Origin: Nannocystis bainbridge
Lineage (GTDB): Bacteria > Myxococcota_A > Polyangia > Nannocystales > Nannocystaceae
Assembly: GCF_028368995.1 (NCBI RefSeq)
Contig: NZ_JAQNDL010000003.1
Coordinates: forward strand, 544,001 to 608,000
Length of the DNA: 64,000 bases
Direction of reading: 5' to 3'
The translations under genes were made by a program, and so were the position numbers. Below are positions 1 through 61,626 of the stretch, piece after piece. The notes beneath the pieces are model-generated. The model made no database searches, was not told the origin of the DNA, and saw only the letters and a program-made list of their open reading frames with translations. Positions within the stretch are counted from its first letter, which is position 1, and each line of letters opens with the position of its first letter.

Positions 1-221
1 AGCGCGATCGTCTGCGAGCGGCCGTAGCCGGCGCGGCTGTACACCAGCGCCCCGCAGCCGGTCGCCGCGACCAGCCGCTCGGGGAAATCGCGCCACAGGC
101 TCACGCAGCCGAGCCCCTCGTGCAGCAGCACCAGCGTCGGCGCCTCGGCCGGCCCGGGCCCGACCCACCGGTACTCGAGCCGCTGCCCTGCCGCCGTCAG
201 ATAGCCTGTCTCTTGCGACAT
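1..221 (-). CDS. Alpha/beta-fold hydrolase, N-terminal part (runs off the window edge)
   Basis: Manual translation of the minus strand from ATG at 221: MSQETGYLTAAGQRLEYRWVGPGPAEAPTLVLLHEGLGCVSLWRDFPERLVAATGCGALVYSRAGYGRS. The LLHEGLG and YSRxGYGRS motifs are typical of alpha/beta hydrolases. Confidence 0.85.
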   Translation of the reverse strand, partial: MSQETGYLTAAGQRLEYRWVGPGPAEAPTLVLLHEGLGCVSLWRDFPERLVAATGCGALVYSRAGYGRSQTIA

Positions 222-253
222 GCCTGATTCAACATGTCCTTCCAGACATACCC
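216..253. repeat. 14-bp-pitch decamer array (3 units)
   Basis: Cores CATG 219, CATG 233, CATA 247. The first core is the start codon of the hydrolase. Confidence 0.75.
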
Positions 254-289
254 ATCACACCGAACTCGGCAGTCTCTCGCGCCATGTCT

Positions 290-1225
290 TCAGAGCAGCT
301 GCCCGTGGTGCGGCTGGGCCGGCTCGGGCAGCTCGGTTTCGCCGAGGCGCTGGCGCAGGTCGAGCTCGATCGTGCGGCACAGCGCCGACAGCGGCAGGTC
401 GTTGGGATCGCTGCCGAACGGATCTTGGATCTCCTCGCCGAGCGCGTCGAGCCCGTAGAACGCGTACGACATCATCACCACCACCACCGGTGTCATCAGC
501 CCCAGCGGCAGCAGCACCCCGAACGGCAGCGCGTAGCAGTAGGCGCCGATGATGTGGCGCAGCAGCACCTGATAGGCGAACGGGATCGGCGTATTGGCGA
601 TCCGCTCGCACCCGCCCTGCACGTCGGTCAGCGCCGTCAGCGTCTGGTGCAGCAGGCTCAGGTGCATCGGATGGATGAGCTCGGCGCGATAGGCCTCGTC
701 GAGCTGCTCCGCCATCCGCTGGACCAGCGCATTGGGTCGGTTGCGCTCGGTCTTTATCTGCTCGAGCTCGCTGGCCGACATGAACGGCGCGAGGTCGGTC
801 ACCATCGTCTCCTCGCCGCGCAGCCGCATCCGCAGCGCGTGCGGGAACGCCATCACCAGGTAGATCAGGCGCCGGCGCCGCTCCAGCACCGCCGCGCCGT
901 CCCCCGCGCCGACCAGCGTCTGCACCTGGCGCGCCAGCGTCCTGCAGGTATTGACCAGTTGGCCCCACAGCCGCCGGCCCTCCCAGTAGCGGTCGTAGGC
1001 CGTGTTGATGCGGAAGCCGAGGAAGATGCTGAGGACGAAGCCGATCAGCGTAAACGGCAGCGGCGTCACGTCGCGGCCGTCGAGCCAGCCGTAGCGCATG
1101 TGGCCCAGCGTCATCACCAGGGCGAACGTCCCGTTGAACGTCAGGCGCCGCCAGATCCGCGACAGCGTCGTCCCGCGGGCCGCGAACATGAAATACAGCC
1201 AGGACCCCCTGGTCGTGACGATCAT
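290..1225 (-). CDS. Bestrophin family (YneE/UPF0187-like) membrane channel
   Basis: Motifs [33 protein letters not shown] and [15 protein letters not shown]. Start taken at MIVTTRG; the ORF extends to 1264. Confidence 0.9.
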
Positions 1226-1306
1226 CCGCGGCGAAGGTAGCCGTTCGGCGCCCGAAAGATCCACGCCGCGTGACGCGCGGCCGCGCCCTCGCTACCCTCC
1301 GCGGGC

Positions 1307-3307: not shown

Positions 3308-6300
3308 ATGAAGCTCCCCGTGCAGGTGCAAGCGCCGCCTGAGCAGCCGCGCACCGAAGTCGGCCTGCCGCGCGCGGCCGGCGAACGTATCCGCGAGACC
3401 ATGGCGGTGGCGATCCAATTCGCCAACACGGCGATCCTGCCGGACCTCGCGCTGTCGCCGACGATGAGCACGCCGCCCGAAGAAGGCGGCATGGAGCGAA
3501 CCGGTCCGCAGCCGCCGCCGGCGACTGCATTGACGGGCCAGGTCGGCCCGTACCGGATCTTGCGGCCGCTCGGGGCCGGCGGCATGGGGGCCGTGTACGA
3601 GGCGACCGATACGCGCACGGGCCAGCGCGTGGCCGTCAAGTCGCTGCTGCGCATGGGCCCGTCGGAGCTTCACCGCTTCAAGTACGAGTTCCGCAGCATG
3701 GCCGAGGTCGGTCACCCGAACCTCGTCACGCTCTACGAGCTGCACTCGCAGAGCGACCTGTGGCTCATCACCATGGAGTACGTCGGCGGCGTCGACCTGT
3801 GCACGGCGCTCCGCGCCCTCGTGCGCGCGCCCGACAGCGACCGCCGGCTGCGCGCGCTGATCCGCCAGCTCGTCCTCGGCGTCACCGCGCTGCATGAGCA
3901 GGGCCTGCTGCACCGCGACCTCAAGCCCTCGAACGTGCTCGTCACCTCGGGCGGCCGCGTCGTCATCCTCGACTTCGGCCTGGTCGCCGCGATCACTCGC
4001 ACCAACAGCAACGAGACCCCGGCGGGCACTCCTCTTTACATGTCGCCCGAGCAGTGCGCCGGCCAGCTCGCGACCCCCGCGAGCGACTGGTACGCCGTCG
4101 GCGTGATGCTCTACGAGGCGCTGACCGGCAAGCTGCCGTTCACCGGCGGCTACGCCCAGATCTTCCTCGCCAAGCAGTGCGAGGAGCCGGCCCCGCCGCG
4201 CGGCCCCGGCCTGCCCGACGACCTCGCGGCGCTGATCTCCGAGCTGCTGCGCCGCGACCCCGAGAAGCGCGCCTCCGGGGCCAAGCTGCTGGCGTGGTGC
4301 GGCGGCGCGGCGCTGTCGCCGGCGCCGGCGATGGCCAGCAGCTCGATCCTGTTCGGTCGCAAGGCCGAGCTCGACGCGCTCGACGAGGGCCTCGCCGCCG
4401 CCGCCCGCGGCCGCACCGCCTGCGTCTACCTGCGCGGTCAACCCGGCGTCGGCAAGACCGGCCTCGTCCACGGCTTCCTCGGCGCCCTCCAGCCACGCGG
4501 CGACGTCGTCGCCCTCACCGCTCGCTGCTACCAGCACGAGACCGTCCCCTTCAAGGCCTTCGACAGCCTCGTCGACGCCCTCGCCGATCACCTCGGCGCG
4601 CTCGAGCCGTTCGAACTCACCCCGCTGCTCGGCACCCACACCGGCGAGCTCGCGCGCGTGTTCCCGGTGCTGCAGCGCGTGTCCGCCGTGCGCGAGCTGG
4701 CCCAGAGCGCCCGCGCCGGCGTGTCCGACCAGGAGTCGCGGCGCAAGGCCTTCGCCGCGCTCAAGCGCCTGCTCGCCGCCCTGGCCGCGCGCCGCCGGCT
4801 GGTCCTGTTCCTCGACGATTTCCACTGGAGCGACGCCGACAGCGTGCGCCTGCTGTCCGAGCTGCTGGCCCCGCCCGAAGCCCCGGCGCTGCTGCTGGTC
4901 GTCGCCTATCACACCGAGTGGCCCGGCTCGCCGCTGGTCCGCCACGAGTTCGAGCGCCTGCAGCTACGCGTCCTGCCCGAGCTCCACGTCGCCCGCCTCG
5001 ACGTCGGCCGCCTCGACGAGCGCGACGCCCACGCCGCCGCGCGCGCCCTGCTGGTCGCCGCCGGCCTGCCGCCCGAGCCGTGGGCCGCCGCGATCGCCGA
5101 CGAGGCCCGCGGCGACTCCTACGTGCTCGAGGCCCTCGTCCACGAGCTCACCCACGCCGACCTCGCCACCCTCACGCCCGAGTCCCTGTCCTTCGAGACA
5201 TGTCTCCAGACGCGGGTCGACAACCTCTTCCCCGGCGACCGCGCCGCGCTCGAGCTGGTGGCCGCCGCCGGCGCCCCGCTGCCGACCGGCCTGCTCGCGC
5301 GCTCGCTCGGCGACCCTTCCGACATCCACGCCCGCCTGGCCCGCCTGCACGCCACCCGCCTGGTCCAGCTCGGCCGCCGCAACCACGCGCCCAGCGTCGA
5401 GCCGCTGCATGACCGCGGCCGCGCTCTGGTCGTGCGCGCCTTCTCGCCCGACCGCGCCCGCCAGCTGCACCGCCTGCTCGCCGACACCGCGCTGCAGCTC
5501 GGCCGCCCCGACGCCGAGTTCATGGCCCGTCACCTGTTCGCCGCCGGCGACCGCGAGCGCGCGGCCACCTACGCCGAGCGGGCCGGCAAGGCCGCCGCCG
5601 ACGCCCTCGCCTTCGCCCGCGCCGCCGAGCTGCATGAGCTGGCCCTGCGCTGCACCCCCGAGTCGTGGCCGCGCATGGTCGCCTGCGCCCGCGCCAAGGT
5701 CGACGCCGGCCTCGGCCTCGAGGCCGCGCCGATCTTCCTCCGCGCCGCCGAAAAGGCCCCGCCGGGCCAGCGCGCCGAGCTGCGCGTCCGCGCCTGCGAG
5801 CAGTACTTCGCGGTCGGCGAGACGGCCCGCGGCGAGGCTGTCCTCAAGGACCTGCTCGAAGGGACAGGCTTCTCCGACCCCGGCAGCGGCGAGGTCCTGG
5901 CCGCCGCCTTCCAGACCGAGGTCGCCGCGCTGCTCGGCGGCGCCGAGCCGGACATGTCTTACGGGACAGGTTCCGAACCGGCCGCGCAGTCCGACGCGCT
6001 GTGGGCCGCCGCCAAGGGCCTGTTCATCCACAGCCCGGTGCGCTCGGCCTACTTCGCCGCCCGCAGCGCCGCGATCGCCCGCGCCGTCGGCGACGAGGCC
6101 CGCCACGTCCGCGGCATGGTCATCGTCCGCGCGCTGTGGGCCGCCGCCGGCGACTCCGCTGCCTTGACCCGCCTGCGCGGCATCATCGACGACTACCTGC
6201 GCCGCCGCGACGATCCCTACATCGTCGGCCTCTCGGTCCTGTTCGACGGCATCTCCGCCGTCAGCCGCGGCCGCTGGGCCGACGCCATGCGCGACCTCGA

Positions 6301-7138
6301 GTTCGGCATCACCCACCTGCGCCAGCGCTGCACCAACATCGCCTGGGAGTGCAACTTCGGCGCCGTCATGCTCATGAGCTTGCTCGAGTCGCGCGGCGAG
6401 CTGCGGGCCATCGCCCTGCGCAGCGCCGTCATGAGCGAGCAGGCCCAGCAGACCGGCGACTCGATGGTCGAGTTCGTCGCCGCCTACTACAGCGCCCTCG
6501 TCCTGCTCGCCGCCGACGCCCCCTCCGACGCGCGCGAGGTCGTCGCCCGCGCCGTCCGCCTCGGCAACGTCGCCGCCGGTTCGGCCGCCGGCCTGCGCGC
6601 CTCGATGATTGAGGCCCTCTGCGCCCAGTACGCCGGCGAGATCGCCATCGCCTGGACCGAGGTCGAGCGCGTCACCGCCCTGCTCGCTGCCGGCGGCGCC
6701 GCCTTCACCAAGAACCAGCGCGCCAACTTCATCAGTCTCCACGGACAGGTCGCATTGGCCATGGCCGAACGGTCAGGTACCGGCGACGCCCGCGAGCCCT
6801 ACCTGGCCGCCGCCGCCGCCGACGCCGACGCCCTCAAGCAGATCGGCAACGCCGGCGCGCTCGCCTCCGCCGCCCTCCTCGACGCCGCCGCCCTGGCCCT
6901 CCGCGCCGCCGCCGCCCCCACCGTCGTCGAGGCCCTGCACGCCGCCGCCGAGGCCTTCGACGCCGCCGACATGCCGCTCGCCGCCGCCGCCGCCCGCCTC
7001 CGCCTCGGCACCTGGATCGGCGGATCCGAAGGCGAGCAGATGATCGCCCGCAGCGAAGCCTTCATGCGCCTGCAAGCGATCGCCTGCCCGGCCCGGTGGG
7101 TCATCACCAACACCCCCGGCCTGTCCCCGCCGCTGTGA
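3308..7138 (+). CDS. Ser/Thr protein kinase fused to a P-loop AAA ATPase and a TPR-like helical region
   Basis: Kinase motifs [36 protein letters not shown]. Walker A GQPGVGKT and Walker B-like LFLDDFHW. The true start may be later (about 3464-3491). Confidence 0.92.
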
Positions 7139-7147: not shown

Positions 7148-7171
7148 GGACATGTCCCGAAGGACATGTCA
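7148..7171. repeat. 14-bp-pitch decamer pair GGACATGTCC-CGAA-GGACATGTCA
   Basis: CATG cores at 7151 and 7165, about 10 bp after the kinase stop codon. Confidence 0.85.
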
Positions 7172-9987: not shown

Positions 9988-9998
9988 GTTGCCCCGAG

Positions 9999-10022
9999 GG
10001 ACATGCCCGCTCGGACATGCCC
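9999..10022. repeat. 14-bp-pitch decamer pair between convergent genes
   Basis: GGACATGCCC-GCTC-GGACATGCCC, cores at 10002 and 10016. Confidence 0.85.
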
Positions 10023-10035
10023 CTCGCGCCAGCCC

Positions 10036-12448: not shown

Positions 12449-12660
12449 CCCCACCCTATAACACGCGGACCACGACGCCGACGCCGGTTTCATCCGCGAC
12501 GCACGCGGCCGGCTCGCGCGGCCCAGCGCCGCCGCCTCCGCGGCCGCGCCACCCCCTCGCAACACGGGAACGCGCTCGGGTCCGCCCCGTCGCCACCGCA
12601 CCCCGGCAGCTCCGGCTCAGCTGCGCACCTGGCGAGAGCAGGCACCGCCGCGATCACGGA

Positions 12661-12712
12661 GTGCATGTCCCCGAGAACATGCCTCTTAGAGCATGCCCCA
12701 AACGACATGTCC
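12661..12712. repeat. 14-bp-pitch decamer array (4 units)
   Basis: CATG cores at 12664, 12678, 12692, 12706, just downstream of the helicase stop codon. Confidence 0.9.
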
Positions 12713-12732
12713 TGAAGTTTCTCCTAAAAAAC

Positions 12733-15045
<2,313 letters not shown>

Positions 15046-15334: not shown

Positions 15335-15414
15335 GGGCATGTCGCTTCGAACATGCCCCCGAGGACATGCCCGAAGCGACATGCCCCTGCGGACATGCCC
15401 CGCGAGACAGCCTC
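15335..15414. repeat. 14-bp-pitch decamer array (6 units)
   Basis: Cores at 15338, 15352, 15366, 15380, 15394 (CATG) and 15408 (CAGC), abutting the stop codon at 15420. Confidence 0.92.
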
Positions 15415-18026: not shown

Positions 18027-18153
18027 GGACCTGCCCCATGCGACCTGTCCTCCAAAACATGTCCATTGGCGCAGGTCCGAGCGCTGCCTCGCCTGTCCCG
18101 ACGCCCACGCCGCCCGGGACCTATCCCGCCAACCTGTCCCTCGGGACATCTCG
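18027..18153. repeat. 14-bp-pitch decamer arrays (4 units plus further degenerate units)
   Basis: Cores CCTG 18030, CCTG 18044, CATG 18058, CAGG 18072; then CCTG 18133 and CATC 18147. Confidence 0.8.
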
Positions 18154-20886: not shown

Positions 20887-20952
20887 GCGCATGTCCCCGG
20901 CGCCATGTTCTCCAGGACATGTTTTTAAGAACATGCCCCCGGAGACATGTTC
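20887..20952. repeat. 14-bp-pitch decamer array (5 units)
   Basis: CATG cores at 20890, 20904, 20918, 20932, 20946, starting about 7 bp after the stop at 20880. Confidence 0.92.
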
Positions 20953-30493: not shown

Positions 30494-30559
30494 GGACATG
30501 CCCCTGAGAGCATGCTCCATGCGACATGTGCATGCGAGCATGTCCCTTGCGACATGTAT
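30494..30559. repeat. 14-bp-pitch decamer array (5 units) between convergent genes
   Basis: CATG cores at 30497, 30511, 30525, 30539, 30553. Confidence 0.92.
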
Positions 30560-33319: not shown

Positions 33320-33456
33320 GCACATGCCCCAAGGAACCTTCCTGAAGGTCATGCTGCGGACGAGCACCCGAATTCGCCGCCTCGATGTTCGAACATGCTC
33401 CTTCGAGCATGCTCCTTCGAGCATGTCGAAACGAACATGCTCTCTTGAACATGTCT
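33320..33456. repeat. 14-bp-pitch decamer array (5 exact units plus upstream degenerate units)
   Basis: CATG cores at 33394, 33408, 33422, 33436, 33450; further units at 33323, 33337 and 33350. Confidence 0.9.
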
Positions 33457-36226: not shown

Positions 36227-36321
36227 CGGCCCACTCGGAGCGCAAACTTCGGACATCTCCTGGCCTGCACGGCGGTCCAGGCAGGTGAATTCATGCCCAC
36301 CAGCGAGAGGATTTCGAACTC

Positions 36322-38225: not shown

Positions 38226-38305
38226 GGACATGCCCTCACGGACATGCCCCATGCGTCATGCCCCATCGGACATGCCCCATCGGACATGCCCTCGCGGACA
38301 TGCCT
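38226..38305. repeat. 14-bp-pitch decamer array (6 units), the best-conserved copy
   Basis: GGACATGCCC-TCAC-GGACATGCCC-CATG-CGTCATGCCC-CATC-GGACATGCCC-CATC-GGACATGCCC-TCGC-GGACATGCCT. Cores 38229, 38243, 38257, 38271, 38285, 38299; abuts the purQ stop. Confidence 0.95.
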
Positions 38306-42233: not shown

Positions 42234-42475
42234 GGGGCCTTGCTTGGCGCAGGACCACTCCGCTGTCAATCGCGCCTCCGGCCGGCTAGAGAGGAGTTTC
42301 CGCAAGGTCGAGCCTTGACAACCGCGATCCCGTCATGCAAAAGTCCGGACGAGGCTGACGCTTGGAGTGTCTGGTCTGGCGACTTCGTCGCCGTGACGAG
42401 TCGCTCGCTCGTTGTGATTTCCGTGGCGTCGGCACGGCCCTTTACGGGCTTCGCATACCGCTCCGAGGTTCATCT

Positions 42476-43093: not shown

Positions 43094-43111
43094 GCTGCTC
43101 GCTGTCCCGCG

Positions 43112-43163
43112 GAGCATGTCCTCCGCGCCATGCTCGTCAGGACATGTCCTGAAGCGCATGTGC
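43112..43163. repeat. 14-bp-pitch decamer array (4 units) between convergent genes
   Basis: CATG cores at 43115, 43129, 43143, 43157, plus a degenerate GCTG at 43101. Confidence 0.9.
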
Positions 43164-43210
43164 TCTCGGTCGTCCGCGACGCGTCCGCCCCCCTGACCTC
43201 CCCCGCGCAC

Positions 43211-43247
43211 GAAAAGCCCCGCCGCGTCGCCGCGAGCGGGGCTCTCG
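43211..43247 (-). terminator. Probable rho-independent terminator
   Basis: Minus strand reads GAGCCCCGC-(loop)-GCGGGGCTTTTC, downstream of the 43286 stop. Confidence 0.65.
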
Positions 43248-43285
43248 TCACGCCCAGATACGGATGGTAGGGCGGCGGCGCGGGC

Positions 43286-44770: not shown

Positions 44771-45029
44771 GTGAGCTCCCTGGCGGGCCGTGCCGCGCGA
44801 GCAGTCCTTCGTGCCACCATCGCACATGCTCGCAGCACAGCGCCACGGAAATTCGTGGCGCTAAGCGTGAGGCATTCCGTCCCCACGTTCGCAAAGATGG
44901 GCGAGAGAACTCACGATTACGTGCGACGCCTTCGCCCTGCGATGACACGGGCGGCAGCACCGCCGGCCATGCACGCGAACTTCGTCGCGCACTGTCCGAG
45001 CGCGCGCGCTGACGCGGGCTCGCGCGCGC

Positions 45030-46499: not shown

Positions 46500-46555
46500 G
46501 GCGGCTATGTGCGGGAACAGCCCCCGCGCTGTCCAATGAATGTACTTTCACCGGA

Positions 46556-49192
<2,637 letters not shown>

Positions 49193-49372
49193 GGCGCGCC
49201 GCAACGCTAAGCCGAGCGCGCGCGATTGCCAAGAGAAACCCGCGGCGGCTCCGCGGAGGATCCGCCCGTCCGCGACCTCGGCGTGGACCGGTCGACTGCG
49301 GCGCGGCCCGACGGCCTCCGCGACCGGTCCGGCGACCTGCCTGACGCAGGCGCGGCCCGCCGCGACCGGCGC

Positions 49373-49882
49373 TCAGGGCTCCGGGCAGGGCCCGGAGCGG
49401 GGCGTCACGGCGATCGTCGCACCGGCCTCGACCTGGACCTTCGTCACCAGCGTGACCTCTTCCTTGCCGGGGCCGAAGCAGCGGCCGACGTAGCCGGTGT
49501 CGGTGAGCGCGCGGGCCTCGATGTGCCAGCGCCCGGCCGACCCGACGACCACCCGCATCTCCGCCGAGTTCTGGCTCGCGGGACAGGTGGCGGCGTCGCC
49601 GACCACCTCCTCGTACGGATCGACCTTGATCGTGCACGGGGCCGGCGGCGCCTGCTCGCAGCCGACCTTGGTCGCGCGCAGCGACACCGTGGTCGCGCCG
49701 TTGGTGCCGCACAGGTCGATGACGTCGACCTGCGCCACGATCTCGACCTCGCCCGGCGTCGCCCCGGGCGGGGTCGTCGTCGACCCGCTGCTGCCGCTCT
49801 CGGTGCTCGCGCCGCCGTCGTCGCCGCAGGCCATGACCAGCGCCAACGAACCTGTCCCCAGGAACCTGCTCCAAAGTCTCAT
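49373..49882 (-). CDS. Hypothetical Cys-containing lipoprotein
   Basis: Lipobox VMAC followed by GDD; host-like codon usage. Confidence 0.75.
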   Translation of the reverse strand: MRLWSRFLGTGSLALVMACGDDGGASTESGSSGSTTTPPGATPGEVEIVAQVDVIDLCGTNGATTVSLRATKVGCEQAPPAPCTIKVDPYEEVVGDAATCPASQNSAEMRVVVGSAGRWHIEARALTDTGYVGRCFGPGKEEVTLVTKVQVEAGATIAVTPRSGPCPEP

Positions 49883-49922
49883 CAAAGCTCCGTCTCCGTG
49901 CCCGTGTCGCCGCGCATCCTGT

Positions 49923-49960
49923 TTACATGCCCCATGGGTCATGTCCCCAAGGACATGTCC
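49923..49960. repeat. 14-bp-pitch decamer array (3 units)
   Basis: CATG cores at 49926, 49940, 49954. Confidence 0.85.
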
Positions 49961-50016
49961 TGAAGCATCCTCGGCCCCCGCGCCTCGCCGACCTGTCCCG
50001 AAGTATCATCGCCGGC

Positions 50017-52211: not shown

Positions 52212-55200
52212 ATGCCATCGCGTCGACTGTCGCTGTTCTCCGCCTCGCTCGTGTCCCTCGCGATGATCCCGCTGGCCGGCGCCGCCGAGCCGACCGGCAA
52301 GCACGCTGCCGGCAACAAGACCCTCGGCAAGCCGCTCGCGCGCGTCGTCGCCGCGGATCATCCGGCCGCGCGTCCGCGGCCGCTGAGCCTCGCGCAGGCG
52401 GGCAAGGCCGCCGCCCCGGCGCCGTTCGTGCGGGCCGCGCTGATCGATCTCGCAGCGCGCTCGAGCGAGCCGGCGCGGGTCCGCCTCGATCCCGCGCACG
52501 GCACCTTGCGGCGCTTCGACGGCCGTGTCGCCAACCCGCACGGCCTCGGCGTGCGCGCGTGCGAGGCCCTGCTCGCCGAGCACCGCGACGTGCTCGGCCT
52601 CGCCGCCGCCCCGGGCGCGGCCGATCTCGTGCAGACGCGCGTCATCAATGGCGACGCCGGCGACCTCGCGCTCCACTACGACGTCCGCTTCCGCGGCCTG
52701 CCGGTGTGGGGCGCCGAGGTCCGGGCTCACTTCGACGCCAGCGGCGCCCTCACCTCGATCGCCGCGCAGAACCTCGGCCGCCTCGATCCGCCGCAGCTCG
52801 TCAAGTTCGGGGCCGACGCCGCCCGCGTCCGCGCCCGTCGTGCCAACGGCCCTGACGCCGTCGATCGCCGCGCCGTCGACCTCGGCCCCGCCGAGCTCGG
52901 CGTATGGCCGCAGAGCCACGATCGCGGCGGCGTGCTCGCCTGGCGCCTGCTTCAGACCGTCAGCCTCGCCGAAGGCGGCTATCAACACTTCGAGACCTAC
53001 GTCGACGCCGAGGCCGGCCGCGTGCTCGCTCGCCGCCCGCTCGTCGCCACCGAGACCGTCAACTCGACCACCGGCACCGCCAACGATCACTTCGGCAAGC
53101 AGGTCACCCTGCGACTCTCGCACTACCCGGGCAAGGGCGAGTACGGCCTCTACGACCGCAGCAAGGGCCTCGCCGCCGCCACCTTGCAGACCCTCGACGC
53201 CGGCAACAGCGACCTTCCGGGCAACGCCGCGCTGGCCACCAGCAAGACCAAGACCGCGTGGACGGCCGCCGAGGCGACCGCGCACGCCCACATGCAGAAG
53301 GTCATCGACTACTTCCAGGCCACCCACGCCCGCAACTCGTGGGACGGCAAGGGCGCCGCGGTCGAGCAGCTCATCCACTACGGCCAGGCCTACAACAACG
53401 CCTTTTGGGACCCGTACAACAAGCACATGGCCATCGGCGACGGCGACAAGTTGATCTTCAAGGAGTTCACGCGCTCGCTCGACGTCTCGGCCCACGAGTA
53501 CAGCCACGCCGTCATCACCGGCACCGCCAACCTCGTCTATCAGAACCAGCCGGGCGCGCTCAACGAGAGCTTCGCCGACGTCATGGCGATGATGATCGAC
53601 CGCGACGACTGGGTCCTCGGCGAGGACGTGGTCGGCCCCGGCTTCGGCGCCCCGTTCGCGCGCAGCTTCATCGATCCCAATTTGGGCGGTCAGCCCAAGC
53701 ACATGGAGAAGATCTACAAGGGCACCGACGACTACGGCGGCGTCCACATCAACAGCGGGATCCCCAACCACGCCGCCTACCGCCTCGCCATCGCCCGCAG
53801 CCGCGAGCTCGTCGAGAAGGTCTGGTACCGCACCCTCTACAAGGGCCACATCGGCAGCCAGGCCAGCTTCGTCGACATGGCCCAGGGGACAGTCGCCGCC
53901 TGCAAGGAGCTCATCGCGCTCGGCCAGGCCACCGGCGCCGACTGCACCGCCACCGCCGAGGCGTGGGTCGACGTCGGCGTGCTCGCGGCCAGCGACGTGC
54001 CGAAGGACGGCTGCCCTGACAAGTCGTCCGAGAAGGACGGCCTGTGCTACTGCGACCCCGGCTTCGTCCCCAGCGGCGACGGCACCGCCTGCGTCGCGCT
54101 CGGCGGCGTCGACTGCCCCGCCAACTCGATCGAGGCCAACGGCCTGTGTCTGTGCCAGGACGGCTTCAAGCCCAACCAGGACGGCAGCCAGTGCGTCGCC
54201 GAGCAGAACGGCTGCCCGCTCAACTCCGGCTGGGACGCCGCCAAAAAGAAGTGCGTGTGCGACCCCGGCTTCGAGGGCGCCCCCAACGCGCCTGACGGCA
54301 AGTGCGAGCCTGTCGAGAGCGACTGCCCGGCCGACGCGCACCCCGAGTGGGCCGACCCGATGGACCAGGCCGACTACACCTGCGCCTGCAACGACAACTT
54401 CGAGGACGACGGCAACGGCAACTGCGTCGTCATCGCCGGCACCTGCGGCAACGAGTCGTTCTTCGGCCGCTGCGACGGCGACACCCTCGTCTACTGCCAG
54501 CCCGGCGTGCCCGACGACGAGATCCACGGCATCGACTGCGCCGGCGAGGGCCTCGTGTGCGGCAAGTTCGACTCCGTCGTCGGCTACGACTGCCTCAACC
54601 CTGACGGCAAGGGAGCGGCCGCCACCTGCGACGCTGACGGCTATCAGGAGTGCGGCGCGGGCAACCCGTTCTGCGTGTCCGAGCAGGACGCATCCACCGG
54701 CTTCTGCTCGCACGAGTGCAAGGCCGGCGGCGACTGTGAGAGCGCCTACGACTGCTGCGCCAGCGTCTCCGACGGCACCCGCGCCTGCCTCGTCGATCCG
54801 TACTGCGCCGAGAACATCGACACCAAGGCCACCTGCAAGGACATCCCCGGCGGCAGCACCTTCCACGGCAAGTGCGTCGGCGACGTGCTCGTCTACTGCG
54901 ACGGCTCGACCGGCGTCACCCAGGAGGTCTTCTGCGTCAAGGAGGGCAAGGAGTGCGGCTTCGTCGACAAGGCGACCGGCTACAGCTGCGTCGACCCTGA
55001 CTCGGGCGCCTTGCCGGAGGCGCCGGCCGACTGGTGCCCGCACGAGAAGGACGGCAGCTGCGACGTGCCCGACCTGTGCCCCGAGGGCTCCGACGGCGCC
55101 GACTGCAACGCGTGCGGCGACATCGGCGAGGCCGGCGCCTGCGACGGCGACCTGCTCAAGTTCTGCGACCCCGACGACGGCCTCGTCACCACCGACTGCG

Positions 55201-55472
55201 CCGCCACGCCGACCACCCCGAGCTGCGGCCCGGGCGACGACGGCACGTTCGCCTGCGGCCCCGGCCCCGGCCCCGACGACCCGACCACCGGCGGCCCCGG
55301 CAGCGACAGCGAGGGCTCGGACAGCACCGGCGAGGCCCCCAGCTCCGACACCGCCACCGCCGGCGAGGTCGGCACGATCACCTGCGCCTGCCGCAGCGAC
55401 GCCCCCGTCGACTGGCGCCAGCTGCTGCTCGCCGCCCCGCTGCTGCTCCGCCGGCGCCGCAAGCATGGCTGA
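52212..55472 (+). CDS. M4 (thermolysin-family) metallopeptidase with long Cys-rich EGF-like repeats and a MYXO-CTERM-like tail
   Basis: FTP/PepSY-like prodomain; motifs NNAFW, AHEYSH (HEXXH), GALNESFAD, GGVHINSG. Many CxCxxGF repeats; tail CAC...LLLRRRRK. Confidence 0.92.
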   Translation: MPSRRLSLFSASLVSLAMIPLAGAAEPTGKHAAGNKTLGKPLARVVAADHPAARPRPLSLAQAGKAAAPAPFVRAALIDLAARSSEPARVRLDPAHGTLRRFDGRVANPHGLGVRACEALLAEHRDVLGLAAAPGAADLVQTRVINGDAGDLALHYDVRFRGLPVWGAEVRAHFDASGALTSIAAQNLGRLDPPQLVKFGADAARVRARRANGPDAVDRRAVDLGPAELGVWPQSHDRGGVLAWRLLQTVSLAEGGYQHFETYVDAEAGRVLARRPLVATETVNSTTGTANDHFGKQVTLRLSHYPGKGEYGLYDRSKGLAAATLQTLDAGNSDLPGNAALATSKTKTAWTAAEATAHAHMQKVIDYFQATHARNSWDGKGAAVEQLIHYGQAYNNAFWDPYNKHMAIGDGDKLIFKEFTRSLDVSAHEYSHAVITGTANLVYQNQPGALNESFADVMAMMIDRDDWVLGEDVVGPGFGAPFARSFIDPNLGGQPKHMEKIYKGTDDYGGVHINSGIPNHAAYRLAIARSRELVEKVWYRTLYKGHIGSQASFVDMAQGTVAACKELIALGQATGADCTATAEAWVDVGVLAASDVPKDGCPDKSSEKDGLCYCDPGFVPSGDGTACVALGGVDCPANSIEANGLCLCQDGFKPNQDGSQCVAEQNGCPLNSGWDAAKKKCVCDPGFEGAPNAPDGKCEPVESDCPADAHPEWADPMDQADYTCACNDNFEDDGNGNCVVIAGTCGNESFFGRCDGDTLVYCQPGVPDDEIHGIDCAGEGLVCGKFDSVVGYDCLNPDGKGAAATCDADGYQECGAGNPFCVSEQDASTGFCSHECKAGGDCESAYDCCASVSDGTRACLVDPYCAENIDTKATCKDIPGGSTFHGKCVGDVLVYCDGSTGVTQEVFCVKEGKECGFVDKATGYSCVDPDSGALPEAPADWCPHEKDGSCDVPDLCPEGSDGADCNACGDIGEAGACDGDLLKFCDPDDGLVTTDCAATPTTPSCGPGDDGTFACGPGPGPDDPTTGGPGSDSEGSDSTGEAPSSDTATAGEVGTITCACRSDAPVDWRQLLLAAPLLLRRRRKHG

Positions 55473-55526
55473 AAGAGCATGTCTCTCCGGGCATGCCCTT
55501 CGGGGCATGTCTCCGAGGACATGTAT
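55461..55526. repeat. 14-bp-pitch decamer array (5 units) straddling the M4 peptidase stop
   Basis: CATG cores at 55464, 55478, 55492, 55506, 55520. Confidence 0.92.
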
Positions 55527-55731: not shown

Positions 55732-58004
55732 ATGCATCGGCCCTCGCGGCCGTCCGCGCTCCCTGCTCTGCTCGCGGCCGGTTTGGTCCTCGGCCTCTCC
55801 GCCAGCGCCTCCGCGGCCTGCGTCGACGAGGCCACCTGCACCGTCAAGAAGCCGCTCCTGCTGTTCGTGCTCGACTACTCGACCTCGATGAACAGCCCGA
55901 TCTCCGGCCCGCTGACCCGCTGGCAGGCCGCGGTCGACGGCCTCGTCGATCTCCTCGCGGAGAACGACGGCCTGCTCGCCGATCAGCTGCAGATCGGCGT
56001 GCTGCGCTTCGGCCACGATCCCGCGCCCGCGATCGCCGGCACCGCGATCGCCGGCGACGCCTCCGGCCTGGTCGACGGCCAGCGCCTCGACATCGGTTTT
56101 TATGATGCGCTCGCGCCCGACCATGCCTACCTGCAATGCAACGGCGACGCCCTGACCACCGCCCTGTTCGCCGTCCCGACGCCCCTCGACGGTCAGCCTG
56201 ACGGCATCGAGTCCTGGACCGGCGGCGCCCTCGCACAGGCCAAAACCTACTTGCAGCAGACCCTCGCCGATCACCCGCTCGACCTCGGCACGCGCGACGC
56301 GGCGATCGTGCTCGTCACCGACGGCCCGTGGACCGACCCCTCCGGCGCCACCGAGCTGGCCCCACCGGACGCCGACCCCGCCCTCGTCGCCGCCGACCTT
56401 CTCAATGACATGTCCGTTCGGACATACGTGGTCGCGCTCGGCGAGGCTGCCAATCAGCCCTGGGCCGACGCGATCGGCGTCGCCGGCGGCACCGGCTCCG
56501 CGCGCCTCGGCCTGTCCTTGCAGGGCCTGAACACCTCCCTCGCGGCGAGCGCCCGCGCCGTCGCCCGGGACGTCCGTCTGCCGCGGTGCAGCCCGACCAT
56601 GGCGCGAGCGACGGTGCTGCTCGACGCCTCGTCGTCGCTGCTCAACATCAACGGCGGCACCCAGGCCGGCCCCATGGGCACCACGTCCTGGGACCAGATC
56701 CGCGACGCCCTCACCGGCACCGCCTCGCTGTTCGACCGCCCCGTCCTCGCCAGCACGCGCGAGCACTTCTCGCTCTTCGGCCTTTCCGTGTTCGGCCACG
56801 ACACGCCCGCGCCCGGCGAGCAGCAGCGCCTCGTCGACTACGGCCTGTGTCACGAGGCCCAGTTCGCCTGGGCTCTCGATCCCGAGACCTCGTGCGAGCT
56901 GCCAGGTTGCATCGATCCATGGCAGGCCCGCCCATCACCTGGACCTTCAAAAATTCCGCCGACGAGCCCGCCCTGCCGTTCGCCGGGCCCGTCGTCAGCC
57001 ACATGCCGCGCTGCGACCTCCACCCCAACAACCCCCAGGCGTGCACCGGCTCCGGCAGCTACCTCCACCTCGGCCTCGAGCTCGTGCAAGCCGACCTCGC
57101 CGCCTACAGGTCCGCCTGCCTGGCCGACGGCGCCGCCATGCCGTGCACCGCGACGACCCCGTTCGTCAACGTCCTGATCGTCGACAGCCCCTACAACTCG
57201 AGCGACGCCGCGGTCCAGGTCCCGCTCGAGGCGATGCACGCCGCCGGCGTCACCACCCGCGTGATCGGCTTCGGCGAGCTCCTCGGCCTGCCGCTGCTCA
57301 CCACCCAGCTCGACGCCATGGCCGCCTGGGGCTCGGGCGGGCTCGAGCCCCCGCTCGAAGCCAAGAACCAGCTGCAGCTCGAGGCCGCGCTGGCGAGCAT
57401 CGCCGATGGTTTGCCCGCCGATCCGTGCTGCGACACCCGCGTGTGCAGCCCGGCCAGCTCCTGCGGCGACGGCATCGTCGACTTCGGCGAAGAGTGCGAC
57501 GACGGCAACGGCCAGACCGGCGACGGCTGCAAACCCAACTGCTTCCTCGAGCCGCCCGACGAGACCACCACCGGCGACGAGACCACCACCGGCGACGCGA
57601 CCGACACCGCGACCGACACGGCCTCGACCACCGGCACCTCGACCACCGACGCGATCACCAGCACGACCTCGACCGACACGACCTCGACCACCGGCACCTC
57701 GACCACCGACGCCATCACCGGCACCACCTCGACCACCACGCTCGACCCGACGACGACGACGACCGCGACGACCTTCGTCCCCACGACCGACGGCCCGCCC
57801 ACCACGCAGGGCCCCGGCGACACCTCCGACACGACCGCCAGCAGCAGCAGCGCCACCGACTCCGCAGGCACCGGCGGCATGAACGCGAGCGACGGTTGCA
57901 ACTGCAACAGCGACCCATCCCGCGACCTCGGGCCCGCCTTCTTGTTGGCCCTCGCCGCCCTCGCCCGCCGACGCCGTGACAGGGCCGTTTCGCCCTGTCT
58001 CTGA
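55732..58004 (+). pseudogene. Double-vWA surface protein with a Myxococcus Cys-rich repeat, Thr-rich stalk and MYXO-CTERM-like tail, split by a frameshift near 56920
   Basis: The first frame gives LFVLDYSTSM...LLDASSSL...GCIDPW. Sensible coding continues in another frame (GPPITWTFK...CGDGIVDFGEECDDGN...GCNC...LARRRR). One extra G after TGG restores DPWAGPP. True lesion or sequencing error. Confidence 0.8.
57562..57770 (+). repeat. Thr-rich low-complexity tandem repeats (GDETTT x2; STTGTSTTDAIT x2)
   Basis: Direct repeats visible in both the DNA and the translation. Confidence 0.8.
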
Positions 58005-58076: not shown

Positions 58077-58661
58077 TCACGTCGACCGCGTGAACTCGTC
58101 GATCTCGCCGCGCAGCCACGCCGTGAAGTCCGCGTAGTCGTGCGCCTCGGCCGACACCCGGGCCCCGCCCTCGCGCTTGCGGGCGAACAGCGGCTCCTCG
58201 GCGTGGTGGCGGCACACCGGGTATTCTGGCCCGGGCGCGCTGGTGTCGAAGCACCACTGCCCGCCCCCCCCGGCGTCGGCGAACGCCACCAGGTGGTCGG
58301 TGACGATCGCGTACTCGCTGCCGTCGTCGTCGACCCACCGCACCCCGGGCCCGACGCGCACGTGCTCGCGCGTGTGCGCGGCCGCCTCGCGCGGCGTGTA
58401 CGCGCACAGCTCCACCACCTCGCCGGCCGCGTCGAGCACCCGCAGCGAGCCGAACGACGCCATGAACGCGCTCCAGCTCGGCGGCGGCGAGAACTCGACC
58501 TCCGGCCGCAGCGCCGCCACTAGTTCGCTCAGCACCGCCGGTGGCACCGCCCCGTAGACCGCCCCGAGGTCGCGCTCGGCCGCCACGGCGATCAGCCCGT
58601 AGACCAACTCGTCGAGGCCGCCGCTGCCCCCCTTGCCCTTCGCAACTGTCTTTCGCGCCAT
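58077..58661 (-). CDS. SMI1/KNR4 (SUKH) family protein
   Basis: Motifs PPSWSAFMASFG, LVAFADAGGGGQWCFD, DFTAWL. Confidence 0.75.
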   Translation of the reverse strand: MARKTVAKGKGGSGGLDELVYGLIAVAAERDLGAVYGAVPPAVLSELVAALRPEVEFSPPPSWSAFMASFGSLRVLDAAGEVVELCAYTPREAAAHTREHVRVGPGVRWVDDDGSEYAIVTDHLVAFADAGGGGQWCFDTSAPGPEYPVCRHHAEEPLFARKREGGARVSAEAHDYADFTAWLRGEIDEFTRST

Positions 58662-58749
58662 GTCCTCTCCGACCTTGCCCTTCGGACCTGCCCTCTACGC
58701 CATGTCCGGATCGACCTTGCCCTTCGGACCTGTCCTCCATGACATGTCC
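58656..58749. repeat. 14-bp-pitch decamer array (7 units) containing a 42-bp higher-order duplication
   Basis: Cores at 58659, 58673, 58687, 58701, 58715, 58729, 58743. The unit GCCATGTCC....CGACCTTGCCCTTCGGACCTG occurs twice, 42 bp apart. Confidence 0.88.
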
Positions 58750-58810
58750 GAGAGCCCCCGGCCCCGGCCTCGCGCTTCGGACCTGTCCTTCATTCCCTGC
58801 CCCGAGCGCC

Positions 58811-59599: not shown

Positions 59600-59636
59600 G
59601 GCCGCTCGCCTCTCGGACCGGCTCTCCGGCGCCTCG

Positions 59637-59688
59637 ACACCTGTCTCGAACAACATGTCCCTCACGCCATGCCCCGAAGGTCAGAAGC
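59637..59688. repeat. 14-bp-pitch decamer array (3-4 units)
   Basis: Cores CCTG 59640, CATG 59654, CATG 59668, CAG 59682. Confidence 0.8.
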
Positions 59689-60526
59689 GCAGCGTGACCC
59701 CGGCCCCGCCGTTCCACTTGAGGCGGGTCTTGCCGAGGTTGATGCCGTCGAGCTGGCGCTTCGACTTGATGGCGTTGCGCAGCGGGATGATCGAGTACGT
59801 CGTCAGCAGCAGGCCGACGATCACGACGTAGATGCCGCCGTACAGCATCAGCTTCCCGCGCCGCTCGAACTTGTCGGACTCTTCGCGGAGGCCGGCCGCA
59901 TGCTCCGCGTACTCGTTGTAACATTGGCTGCCCACGTCCGGCTGAGGACAGTTATTCCCCATCTGAACGACCGTCTCCGCCGCCGCGTCCCACTCCTTGG
60001 CCTTCTCGGTCTGCTTCGGCCCGAGGATGAACATCGCCACCGCGCCGCCGATCGCTCCGACCCCGAGCGTCATCGCCGTCGCGCTGAGCGCGATCTGCCG
60101 CTTGTACGCCCCTGCGATGTTCGTCTTCCGTCGCCCCAGCTCGTCGAGCCGCTGATCGACCACCATTTGCTCGTCGGGCGACCCGTGCGGCCGGAATTCC
60201 TTGTACTCCGACACCGCCGTCCCGAGCTTGCCCTGCGCCTCCGCCAGCACCCCCAAATTGAAGTGCAGCGGCCGCCAGCGCGGCGCGAAGAAAGCCACCC
60301 GGCGCCACTCCTCTTCCGAGTCGACGAACGCCCCATTTTTAAAATGTTCGATCGCCTTGACCGCGTGCTTTTGGGCCTGCGCGTTCAGCTCCTCCGAAGT
60401 CTCCGCCGACGACGGCGCCGGCCCCTCCGGCTCGGTCGCCGACGCCACCGACGGCGTCGCCAGCGAGGCGGCACAGATCACCGCGACCGCCGCCCGGCCC
60501 AGCTTGCGTCCTGTCCCTTCGAACAT
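59681..60526 (-). CDS. Exported TPR-containing protein with two TM segments (paralog B)
   Basis: Clearly similar to 58811-59599 (AQKHA.KA, RRVAFFAP.WRP.HFNL, AYKRQI); ends GAGVTLRF. Start may be up to 60553. Confidence 0.8.
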   Translation of the reverse strand: MFEGTGRKLGRAAVAVICAASLATPSVASATEPEGPAPSSAETSEELNAQAQKHAVKAIEHFKNGAFVDSEEEWRRVAFFAPRWRPLHFNLGVLAEAQGKLGTAVSEYKEFRPHGSPDEQMVVDQRLDELGRRKTNIAGAYKRQIALSATAMTLGVGAIGGAVAMFILGPKQTEKAKEWDAAAETVVQMGNNCPQPDVGSQCYNEYAEHAAGLREESDKFERRGKLMLYGGIYVVIVGLLLTTYSIIPLRNAIKSKRQLDGINLGKTRLKWNGGAGVTLRF

Positions 60527-60549
60527 GTTCCTTGAACCTTGCAGCAGCA

Positions 60550-61626
60550 TCACTCGCCGTCCTTCGGCACGATCTCATAGGACTTCGTCACCCGCGACCA
60601 GCGGGAGATCGGCACCTGCGCCAGCGCCTTCTCCAGCTTGTCCGCGTAGGCCAGGCCCTCGCCGGCGTCCATCGCCGCCGGCTTGAAGCGGTCGAAGTCC
60701 TCGCGGTGGGTGAACGCGTAGACCACCAGCGTCTCGCGGGCGGGCGTGTTCGGGTCGCGCAGGCTCGCCGCGATCGCCTTCTCGTCGGGCGTCGGCAGGA
60801 CCAGGCTGGCCTTGCCCTTGATCGTCGGCAGCGGCACCGAGTCGCTCGGATACACCACCCCGCCGGCCGCGGTCTCCTCGAGCGCGATGACGATCAGGTA
60901 CGCCGTCTCGCTGGCCGAGAACTCGAAGTGGACCCGCTCGCCGTCGACGAACTTCTCCGGCATCTTGACCCAGAAGTCGAACTGCTTCTGCTGGGCCGCG
61001 CGGTCGTAGGAGAACGCGTACGCCTGCGGGTCGCCCCACTCCATCGAGTCGAGCGCCTCCGTCGCCGCCTCGCGGCCGCCCTGGACGCCGATGCCGCCCT
61101 TGCCCACGCGGCCCTTCGCCGCGCCCTCGGCCGAGCGGACCAGCTTGCGGAAGCCCGAGCCGACGCGGACCGACTTGACGATCACCTCGCCGCACGGCCC
61201 GTCGGTGTCGGCGGTCAGCGTCTTCACGTTCTGGATCTCGTACTCCGCCTCGACCGAGCGGCCGTAGCGGGCCTCGAGCTTGAGCATGTCCATGTAGCCG
61301 CCGGCGAACGCCGTCAGGTCGCCGAGGCCGACGCGGTACTTCTTCTTGTAGCTCGACGACGACTCCTTGACCCGGACCTCGCAGCCGGGCGCGCGCTCGT
61401 CCGCGATCGTCCACGCCCCCGCCGTCGTCACCCGCACCTGGCGGCCGAGCAGCGCCTCGGCGTCGCCGGTCGGCTCGAGCAGGAAGTGGGTGTCGGACGA
61501 GAACCCGCCGATCTTCTCCGCCACCTCGGAGTCGGCCTTGGGCGCGGCCAGGAAGCCTTGCTTCGTACATGCCCCGAGGGACATGCCCCCGAGGACAGCC
61601 ATCACGACCCACGCGGCGCGGCTCAT
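60550..61626 (-). CDS. Lipoprotein with a C-terminal DUF4384-like domain
   Basis: Lipobox LGAC. Segment F.DGERVHFEFSASETAYLIVI...VVYP...ETLVVYA. Start overlaps the caspase stop. Confidence 0.7.
   Translation of the reverse strand: MSRAAWVVMAVLGGMSLGACTKQGFLAAPKADSEVAEKIGGFSSDTHFLLEPTGDAEALLGRQVRVTTAGAWTIADERAPGCEVRVKESSSSYKKKYRVGLGDLTAFAGGYMDMLKLEARYGRSVEAEYEIQNVKTLTADTDGPCGEVIVKSVRVGSGFRKLVRSAEGAAKGRVGKGGIGVQGGREAATEALDSMEWGDPQAYAFSYDRAAQQKQFDFWVKMPEKFVDGERVHFEFSASETAYLIVIALEETAAGGVVYPSDSVPLPTIKGKASLVLPTPDEKAIAASLRDPNTPARETLVVYAFTHREDFDRFKPAAMDAGEGLAYADKLEKALAQVPISRWSRVTKSYEIVPKDGE

Follow-up and report, generated by a model that had tools for sequence, protein, structure and literature searches.

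The window, a 64-kb stretch of DNA from the soil myxobacterium Nannocystis, is best explained as an ordinary piece of Nannocystis chromosome that carries lineage-specific repetitive extragenic palindromic arrays. In brief, the decamer GGRCATGYCC occurs 2-12 times in an array, with unconstrained spacers of exactly four bases in between, and the arrays are gene-end elements. We tentatively favour the reading that they are REP/BIME-like 3'-boundary arrays, which would form long hairpins and be read by a putative symmetric factor. The repeat family is apparently undescribed; known bacterial gene-end palindromes lie in similar positions but are built differently.

The phased arrays are real and lie far above chance. 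In the window, pairs of CATG cores peak at distances of 14, 28 and 42 bp (43, 24 and 20 pairs), as an earlier sequence-only reading of this DNA had predicted, against 0-2 pairs at the control distances of 13 and 15-17 bp. The pattern GRCATGYC-N6-GRCATGYC, with at most one mismatch, gave 20 matches, against 0.02 on average and never more than 1 in 100 dinucleotide shuffles. The predicted peak is also present genome-wide, with 3736 CATG pairs at 14 bp compared to 72 at 13 bp and 262 at 15 bp. The 11-Mb genome holds 1218 arrays of at least three units at a pitch of 14 bp and 0-5 at any other pitch, and runs of at least two units number approximately 2,700 per genome.

All seven example loci of the sequence-only reading are present, with a core spacing of exactly 14 bp. 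Its count of 35-40 loci was somewhat too high: the window holds 14 arrays of at least three units, as scored with a weight matrix, and 31 runs of at least two units, 11 of which fall inside crude gene calls (Table 1). A relaxed core gave 24 chains, of which several are probably chance, e.g. 38569-38597 within the GATase_5 gene. The locus at 58659-58743, one of the seven, is a super-repeat with a 42-bp period made up of three weaker units, and the block repeat to which it belongs is a recent three-unit duplication.

Table 1. Decamer arrays in the window, their surroundings, and arrays at the matching place in related species
Position	Units	Strand	Surroundings or structure	Arrays in relatives
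216..253	3	.	tandem (-/-) intergenic region	
7148..7171	2, perfect cores	.	~10 nt past stop of + gene 3308-7138	
9999..10022	2	.	convergent intergenic region 9988-10035	
12661..12712	4	.	20 nt past stop of - Suv3-like helicase gene 12733-15045	matching gene end in five related species
15335..15400	5	.	spacers 1 and 3 complementary, giving a 24-bp perfect stem	4/5
18027..18078	4, cores CCTG, CCTG, CATG, CAGG	.	6 nt past stop of M3 peptidase gene 15978-18020	5/5
20887..20952	5	.	6 nt past stop of + gene 20371-20880	
30494..30559	5	.	between convergent 29746-30480 (+) and 30628-31860 (-, VanY domain)	4/4 with anchors found
33391..33456	5, GARCATGCTC type	.	after + gene 32087-33271	
38226..38305	6	.	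abuts TAA stop of - GATase_5 (purQ-like) gene 38305-39129	4/5, same gene end
43112..43163	4	.	between convergent 42476-43093 (+) and 43286-44770 (-)	
49923..49960	3	.	tandem (-/-) intergenic region	
55461..55526	5	.	overlaps stop of + gene 52251-55472	
58631..58750	2.9 copies of 42-bp block (three different weaker units)	.	fills -/- intergenic region	
59637..59674	3	.	6 nt from stop of - gene 59681-60526	
61565..61588	2	.	just downstream of stop (61623) of - gene 61623-62711	

The consensus unit is the palindrome GGRCATGYCC followed by four free, A/T-enriched bases, repeated at a pitch of exactly 14 bp; the same lattice may be viewed as abutting 14-bp inverted repeats, TGYCC-N4-GGRCA. This refines the consensus given earlier, GGAC[A/C]TG[T/C]CC with CATG, CCTG or CAGG cores. 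The CATG core dominates, with 402 of the 507 units in an unbiased sample where every unit has strong units on either side, compared to 18 with CCTG and 14 with CAGG. More than 5,000 units obey this one consensus. Strong units lie 14 bp apart in 3693 cases, 13 bp in 30 and 15 bp in 33, and off-pitch neighbours account for less than 2% of the distances. The spacer centre is approximately 60% A/T (genome 28%). Spacers vary freely, as had been claimed: neighbouring spacers are 0.30-0.33 identical and random pairs 0.26-0.28. An extra proximal half-site is found at 29.1% of 2020 array ends and a distal half at 4.0%.

Pairing between neighbouring units barely exceeds that of shuffles (6.96 vs 6.79 of 10). 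Array sizes in the genome (445 arrays of three units, 284 of four, 253 of five and 174 of six) gave no sign of the preference for even unit numbers expected of a simple hairpin. Core variants of the same type cluster within arrays (251 cases, 60.5 expected), and the corresponding figures for complementary types are 79 and 57.6. Copying of a neighbouring unit from a hairpin template was rejected, as it predicts alternating CCTG and CAGG cores instead of the same-type clustering seen; this clustering is also contrary to what selection for a hairpin would predict. The orientation of CCTG/CAGG variants tracks the replication skew in approximately 74% of arrays, against a genome background of 57%.

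With respect to genes, 542 of the 1218 arrays of at least three units lie in convergent, 422 in tandem and 46 in divergent intergenic regions. Such an array is found in 44% of the 1242 convergent regions, in 13% of the tandem and in 3% of the divergent ones. Among regions of 60-250 bp, a run of at least two units occurs in 497 of 836 convergent, 288 of 1766 tandem and 12 of 654 divergent regions. Relative to stop codons, the arrays begin at about -5 to +20 nt, and the distance from stop to array lies between -5 and +19 nt in 691 of 1506 cases. We estimate that arrays mark approximately one third of the transcription-unit ends. Six of 102 tRNA genes have an array within 120 nt downstream, and some have ordinary hairpin-plus-T terminators. 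It should be noted that the location at gene 3' ends was absent from the sequence-only reading. The interior of called genes holds 558 two-unit runs, compared to 9-65 at other pitches, and these are not explained by a gene-end model.

The arrays fold strongly. The 422 arrays in tandem regions have a mean minimum free energy of -25.6 kcal/mol, compared to -15.5 kcal/mol for dinucleotide shuffles. Eight folds of four window arrays gave z scores from -0.4 to -7.8, seven of them at -2.4 or lower; the array at 38226..38305 reaches -55.4 kcal/mol on the - strand (z -4.9) and -28.2 on the + strand (z -0.4). Convergent regions without arrays are also more stably folded than their shuffles, with a mean z of -1.88 and 43% below -2, whereas divergent regions are not (z -0.44, 9%), indicating that hairpins seem to be wanted at gene ends generally. 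The sense and antisense strands of the tandem arrays hardly differ in folding (213 vs 209 arrays, p = 0.044). In both replication-skew strata, the mRNA-sense strand has an excess of units compatible with G.U pairing, with GT fractions of 0.81 vs 0.48 and 0.44 vs 0.28 (per array, p = 0.015 and 5.6e-6), while the flanking sequence predicts a smaller difference (0.56 vs 0.53 and 0.47 vs 0.45). This bias could stem from transcription-linked cytosine deamination instead of selection.

We did not find a T-tract after the arrays: beyond the last half-unit, the T fraction of the outward flank is 0.12-0.16, equal to the background. No conserved flanking motif was found around them either. A search for consensus hairpin-plus-T-tract terminators between 30000 and 49999 gave three, with 4.5 +/- 2.2 expected from shuffles and thus no excess, and the 64-kb window gave no match to Rfam families at gathering score.

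Comparison with related genomes, suggested in the sequence-only reading, revealed the arrays in other Nannocystis species and in two sister genera, with the same core and pitch in all three. No hits came from 50 genomes in 14 further genera of the family, from 400 genomes elsewhere in the phylum or from viral contigs. Between two species, identity is 0.93-0.97 for the core, 0.82-0.89 for the arms, 0.74-0.82 for the spacers and 0.947 for the flanks, and their alignment contains seven one-base gap runs inside 23 arrays. Arrays are found at matching gene ends in five species despite diverged array sequences. The number of doublet matches ranges from 0 to 90 within genus g4 and from 1 to 223 within Nannocystis; a housekeeping signal would hardly be expected to vary so widely among close relatives. 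In 200 kb of genome G024, from a different genus, a search for comparable arrays built on another motif found no phased 4-mer (top ratio 5.0, count 5, compared to 44.8, count 112, in genome G000). Matches in low-GC metagenomes are ordinary perfect 14-bp tandem repeats on unrelated contigs that fit the loose pattern by chance and do not look like the Nannocystis arrays.

In the reading we favour, the arrays would act as gene-end (3'-boundary) elements, like REP/BIME in enterobacteria. Located in the first bases past the stop codon, they would become part of the 3' end of the mRNA. Each unit is self-complementary, so that in either orientation a whole array could form a single long hairpin interrupted by 4x4 internal loops; this structure would terminate or protect transcripts and keep convergent genes insulated from each other. 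The units would be read side by side by a sequence-specific factor with two-fold symmetry, most likely a protein dimer per decamer, and we propose that sequence and pitch are kept constant because of this factor. Such a reader is a reasonable inference from the exact pitch, from the fact that units match the consensus individually and hardly compensate for one another, and from the conservation of the core between species and genera. The symmetric DNA-binding protein of the sequence-only reading is retained to this extent, while a global regulator or partition site, also proposed there, fits poorly to approximately 2,700 sites that avoid promoter regions.

REP/BIME elements of enterobacteria and REPINs of Pseudomonas are likewise palindromes outside genes that number from hundreds to thousands and lie at 3' ends or in the gaps between convergent genes. 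They are also clustered with fixed internal spacing, hairpin-forming and lineage-restricted, and vary in copy number among relatives. A REP unit is defined by approximately 20-40 nt and a conserved 5' tetranucleotide. The Nannocystis unit is a 10-bp palindrome of the perfect type, whereas theirs is an imperfect one of 20-40 nt. The Nannocystis units follow one another head-to-tail every 14 bp exactly, with 4-bp spacers of free sequence, whereas theirs have conserved linkers, and the Nannocystis arrays are without a RAYT/Y1 gene and without a conserved flanking motif. The arrays share high extragenic copy number and stem-loops with REP/BIME-RAYT systems but lack the Y1 transposase and the long unit with its tetranucleotide. 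Of the earlier suggestion of a REP-like family, position (extragenic, after stops, enriched between convergent genes) and copy number hold up, and membership in the REP/RAYT family does not. A RAYT/Y1 transposase (IS200-like, PF01797) as driver was rejected, with no matches in genome G000 (90.5% complete) and in none of 22 genomes of the array-bearing genera; in other genera of the same family, it is found in 20 of 50 genomes.

It is possible, although rather unlikely, that the arrays work purely at the level of DNA. At gene ends, a sequence-specific dimeric protein would then polymerise along the double helix in steps of 14 bp, i.e. three dimers per four helical turns. It would block RNA polymerase, act as a barrier to supercoiling or organise the nucleoid, and the RNA hairpin would be a by-product of the palindromic sites. 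The arrays do resemble tandem operator or iteron arrays, such as MetJ met-boxes, omega heptads and ParR/TubR centromeres, which are read by small dimeric repressors. In both, short symmetric sites abut at a fixed pitch and spacing is more conserved than sequence, which would imply side-by-side cooperative binding; in Nannocystis, the fixed pitch is evident from the strong-unit distances. The known arrays lie at a few promoters or at one centromere per replicon, whereas those of Nannocystis occupy approximately 2,700 loci. A DNA lattice would fit the exact pitch, the single-unit match to the consensus, core conservation beyond pairing between species and across three genera, the A/T-enriched spacer centres and the extra proximal half-sites. 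It would also fit the intragenic two-unit runs, 9-60 times commoner than other pitches, since genes could tolerate cooperative sites in their interior. Neither the tight start directly after stop codons nor, unless it is mutational, the G/T bias of the mRNA-sense strand is predicted by such a lattice, and it needs a reason for so many sites avoiding promoter regions. Abundance differing up to 90-fold among close relatives also speaks against it, and no candidate protein, nor any for the symmetric binding protein proposed earlier, was identified. We find it doubtful that, as a particular form of such binding, the predicted protein coats gene-end DNA as a helical filament with a dimer per 14 bp, three per four turns, and bounds transcription units via a roadblock or supercoil barrier.

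That the arrays are a selfish or neutral repeat is unlikely. Such a repeat would arise and expand as blocks of 14, 28 or 42 bp are duplicated in tandem, or through a mobilising enzyme, and persist without host function where it is harmless, i.e. after stops; REP elements show the same distribution over tolerated sites. Recent block duplications did occur, with tandem repeat (TRF) periods of 28 and 42 at 15351, 30495, 38227 and 58631, and the clustering of same-type core variants, their orientation along the replication skew and the copy-number variation among close relatives agree with this explanation. Yet the spacers of neighbouring units are almost unrelated, off-pitch neighbours are rare, no target-site-duplication signal is seen in the spacers, Y1 transposase is absent from the 22 genomes and arrays are kept at matching gene ends in five species. 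The core is held while the spacers drift, which points to purifying selection on the unit sequence.

Ordinary factor-independent terminator hairpins that share their sequence through common descent, with no specific reader, are quite improbable. Intrinsic terminators, including bidirectional ones between convergent genes, have the same G+C-rich hairpin soon after the stop codon in both orientations, and the strong folds of the arrays agree. The arrays lack the U/T tract after the stem, and they have one sequence at all loci and a periodic build of several units. The single consensus over more than 5,000 units in three genera, the exact 4-base spacer and the uncompensated core variants would be left unexplained. 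Other identities were rejected: a mini-transposon or MITE, as spacers flanking a unit show no excess identity indicative of a target-site duplication and conserved ends are missing; a slippage VNTR, as the sequence-only reading held, in view of the near-random spacer identity, with recent 14/28/42-bp duplications in a minority of arrays; and a CRISPR array, also dismissed there, which has repeats of 23-47 bp and unique spacers of similar length compared to 10-bp units and 4-bp spacers here.

Compared to known gene-end palindromes, what is new is that one decamer forms a strict 14-bp lattice with spacers that are free to vary, without RAYT and with core and pitch conserved in three genera. In our analysis, this combination, at many transcription-unit ends, all but calls for a dedicated reader, and the arrays offer a ready probe for finding the putative protein. 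If the arrays terminate or insulate transcription, they would be compact bidirectional parts, tunable by unit number, and useful for engineering in high-GC myxobacteria, whose genomes hold many gene clusters for natural products. If they serve as landing pads for a protein, they would represent a new bacterial way of marking gene boundaries, and if the filament reading is true, a protein-based genome-wide code for gene ends, common to the three array-bearing genera.

Paired DNA-uptake sequences and Correia elements of Neisseria are similar in that a single short motif occurs genome-wide, often as inverted pairs downstream of genes that double as a terminator hairpin. They do not form phased multi-unit arrays, and uptake is tied to competence, whereas nothing links the Nannocystis arrays to uptake. 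In full-text listings and the openings of abstracts, we found no description of palindrome arrays with a 14-bp pitch. The sequences GGACATGCCC and GGACATGTCC are textbook p53 half-sites (RRRCWWGYYY). Among the matches listed for GGACATGTCC in the full-text literature, most concern p53 and none bacteria. A search for the P53 domain in the Nannocystis genome gave no hits, which carries little weight since it was equally empty in control genomes. As far as can be told, the resemblance to p53 half-sites is a coincidence of sequence.

At 38226-38305 the unit GGACATGCCC occurs six times with 4-base gaps, and the array ends at the stop codon (TAA) of a gene on the minus strand. The sequence-only reading had described such decamers on an exact 14-bp pitch, and its example coordinates were all correct on re-reading. 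The core autocorrelation that it had proposed peaks accordingly in the window, with 43, 24 and 20 CATG-CATG pairs at 14, 28 and 42 bp and 0-2 at lags 13 and 15-17. The pattern GRCATGYC-N6-GRCATGYC (at most 1 mismatch) has 20 matches in the window, compared with a mean of 0.02 in 100 dinucleotide shuffles. Across the Nannocystis genome under study (11.05 Mb, 71.5% G+C, 5 contigs) there are 3736 CATG pairs at lag 14, while lags 13 and 15 have 72 and 262; harmonics extend to lag 84.

A symmetric weight matrix was built from 507 units, selected solely for having strong units on both sides. Its consensus is GGRCATGYCC, and the cores are CATG (402), CATT (23), CCTG (18), CAGG (14) and AATG (11). Scanning the genome with the matrix, likewise proposed earlier, returned 1218 arrays of at least 3 units (5238 units) at pitch 14 and 0-5 at each of the other pitches between 10 and 21. 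There are 1743 runs of exactly two units at pitch 14 versus 23-98 at pitches 12, 13 and 15-17, and strong units are spaced by 14 bp 3693 times, by 13 bp 30 times and by 15 bp 33 times (background approximately 5-12). The arrays do recur along the window as claimed, the count of 35-40 loci being slightly too high (14 arrays of at least 3 units, 31 runs of at least 2). Some relaxed-core chains within real genes, such as 38569-38597 in a GATase_5 gene, look like chance.

The 4-base spacers are A/T-enriched (approximately 60% at the two central bases) and vary freely, as had been described; identity between neighbouring spacers is 0.30-0.33 versus 0.26-0.28 in random pairs, so that they are essentially unrelated. 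An extra proximal half-site, GGRCA, is present at 29.1% of 2020 array ends and the distal half at 4.0%, with a background of 3.5-3.8%. The lattice is therefore equally readable as abutting TGYCC-N4-GGRCA sites. By arithmetic, assuming 10.5 bp per turn, a 14-bp step is approximately 480 degrees, placing three units per four helical turns. The window also holds a 48-bp tandem repeat at 29940-30046 (2.2 copies, 91% match) and a Thr/Pro-type coding repeat at 57557-57773 (periods 15-60), neither related to the arrays.

The arrays are gene-end elements, which the sequence-only reading overlooked; this follows from their intergenic distribution (see the table) and their distances from stop codons. 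Genes were called with a custom codon-usage score (8158 genes, 84% of the genome), a set that is crude, especially at gene starts. In tandem regions the arrays lie at a median of 18-21 nt past the upstream stop and 170-195 nt ahead of the next start, and the distance from stop to first unit is -5 to +19 nt in 691 of 1506 cases. Among intergenic regions of 60-250 bp, runs of at least 2 units occur in 497 of 836 convergent, 288 of 1766 tandem and 12 of 654 divergent regions. We estimate that the convergent and tandem figures agree if arrays occur independently at approximately 30-36% of gene ends. Pfam confirms real genes beside the window arrays (GATase_5, Suv3-like helicase, M3 peptidase and VanY). 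An array lies at most 120 nt downstream of only 6 of the 102 tRNA genes, and upstream of 1.

Gene context of the arrays, two-unit runs inside window genes, and identity of array parts between two close Nannocystis species
Feature	Scope	Count or coordinates	Share or identity
Convergent intergenic	arrays of at least 3 units	542	44% of 1242 regions
Tandem intergenic	arrays of at least 3 units	422	13% of regions
Divergent intergenic	arrays of at least 3 units	46	3% of regions
Within called genes	arrays of at least 3 units	208	
Gene-interior two-unit run	window example	5950-5973	
Gene-interior two-unit run	window example	7952-7975	
Gene-interior two-unit run	window example	21629-21652	
Gene-interior two-unit run	window example	40254-40277	
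CATG core	two close species		0.93-0.97
Arms	two close species		0.82-0.89
Spacers	two close species		0.74-0.82
Flanks	two close species		0.947

Called genes contain 558 interior two-unit runs at pitch 14 versus 9-65 at pitches 13 and 15-17, and 388 of the 558 fall in high-scoring genes. Since a 14-bp duplication would disrupt the reading frame, these runs must come from substitution. They fit none of the models considered well.

The three-unit pattern was found in 8 of 10 Nannocystis genomes (24-61 matches in those of 12-13 Mb, 105 in the genome under study). None of the 30 sampled genomes from other genera had it, nor did any of 400 additional genomes from the phylum; the reversed pattern, used as a control, gave 0 matches in all genomes. 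Among 73 family genomes, the two-unit pattern occurs in 10 of 10 Nannocystis, 6 of 7 of genus g4 (0-90 matches), 3 of 5 of genus g2 (0-4 matches) and 0 of 50 from the remaining 14 genera. The suggested comparison with related genomes thus places arrays in Nannocystis relatives, g4 and g2. Stretches of the g4 genome G454 that were selected for having matches (360 kb in total) hold 64 CATG pairs at lag 14 versus 0-4 nearby; their unit is RGACATGTCY. In 200 kb of G024, from a different genus, no 4-mer was phased.

In metagenomes, further Nannocystis-like high-GC contigs match the array pattern, and viral contigs gave no match. Mid-GC (0.58-0.66) metagenome loci (L139, L149, L167, L186, L199, L211 and L215) carry WGACATGTCW arrays with 14-bp pitch and diverged spacers. 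Proteins of these contigs have 45-61% identity to those of the genome under study, and the contigs probably come from unsampled relatives with a variant of the array system. Low-GC metagenome matches were ruled out as family members; they are plain perfect tandem repeats that fit the pattern by chance.

Five Nannocystis species have arrays at matching gene ends, but in diverged form: pitch and cores are retained, while spacers and unit numbers vary. Of 31 arrays compared between two close species, 23 could be aligned; over 1223 array bases these alignments contain 181 substitutions and 9 gap runs, of which seven are 1 base long and the other two 6 and 11. In the intergenic region at 12455-12732, the species G005, G007, G001 and G003 have an extra gene of approximately 1.29 kb, absent from the genome under study and from G010, and there the array comes after the stop of the extra gene.

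Three observations count for a transcript hairpin. Folding energy is -25.6 kcal/mol (422 arrays) versus -15.5 for shuffles, the predicted whole-array fold being a single long stem with 4x4 internal loops. Even without arrays, convergent regions have unusually strong folds (z -1.88 versus -0.44 in divergent regions). G.U-compatible units (GGGCATGTCC) are over-represented on the mRNA-sense strand in both replication-skew strata (0.81 versus 0.48 and 0.44 versus 0.28; p = 0.015 and 5.6e-6 per array), beyond what flank composition predicts.

Other observations count against a hairpin alone. Fold energies are nearly equal for the sense and the antisense strand (213 versus 209 arrays), and in the window the better-folding strand mostly tracks replication skew, not gene direction. 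The mRNA-sense bias of G.U-compatible units could come from transcription-linked deamination. Complementarity of neighbouring units is barely higher than in shuffles (6.96 versus 6.79 of 10), and the R/Y pair within a unit is complementary less often than random (0.39 versus 0.45). Core variants of the same type cluster (251 versus 60.5 +/- 7.2 expected) far more than complementary types (79 versus 57.6 +/- 6.9). The decisive argument is conservation, because pairing alone requires neither a single consensus nor an exact 4-base spacer. One consensus kept over 5,000-plus units, in different species and in three genera, together with that spacer, points to recognition of the units by a putative two-fold symmetric, sequence-specific reader.

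We tentatively suggest that the arrays are REP/BIME-like 3'-boundary elements acting via a transcript hairpin, their shape maintained by the putative reader, and hold this at a little short of even probability. A protein lattice on the DNA only is considered unlikely.

That the arrays are a selfish or neutral repeat appears quite unlikely. A selfish component is favoured by visible 28- and 42-bp block duplications, by the same-type clustering of core variants and by copy numbers that differ up to 90-fold between close relatives; no target-site-duplication signal was found between neighbouring spacers. Membership of a REP/RAYT family was rejected, as the defining Y1/RAYT transposase was searched for and detected neither in this genome nor in any of the 22 that represent the three array-bearing genera. 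Of 50 genomes from array-free genera of the same family, 20 have a Y1_Tnp (IS200-like) match; this complete anti-correlation in the sampled family genomes is only a hint, because related genomes lack independence. Rfam gave 0 family matches across the 64-kb window. Extragenic palindromes at gene ends are a known kind of element, and the arrays share that placement and palindromic nature; the strict 14-bp lattice, the free spacers and the lack of a RAYT are new. Full-text literature searching, covering main texts and part of the subscription literature, returned no published description of the arrays.

Plain terminators without a reader, which the gene-end placement and fold would also suit, are highly improbable: no T-run follows the arrays, the outward flank holding one degenerate half-unit with background beyond, and consensus hairpin-plus-T terminators at 30000-49999 show no excess (3 versus 4.5 +/- 2.2 in shuffles). 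Some tRNA genes (e.g. C1:20972-21050) are followed by an ordinary G+C hairpin and T-tract terminator, so the organism has canonical terminators besides the arrays.

The genome has a strong replication-type GC skew of 0.05-0.10, with sign flips at approximately 1.5 Mb on contig C3 and near the end of contig C1. The window lies on contig C2 (544001-608000) and its plus strand is C-rich, and unit asymmetry (GGACATGCCC versus GGGCATGTCC) follows the skew. A sub-family has CCTG or CAGG cores (e.g. C1:390784, C3:120799 and window 18027-18078), some arrays being of a single type throughout, and the orientation of these cores follows replication skew in approximately 74% of intergenic arrays versus 57% in the genome background.
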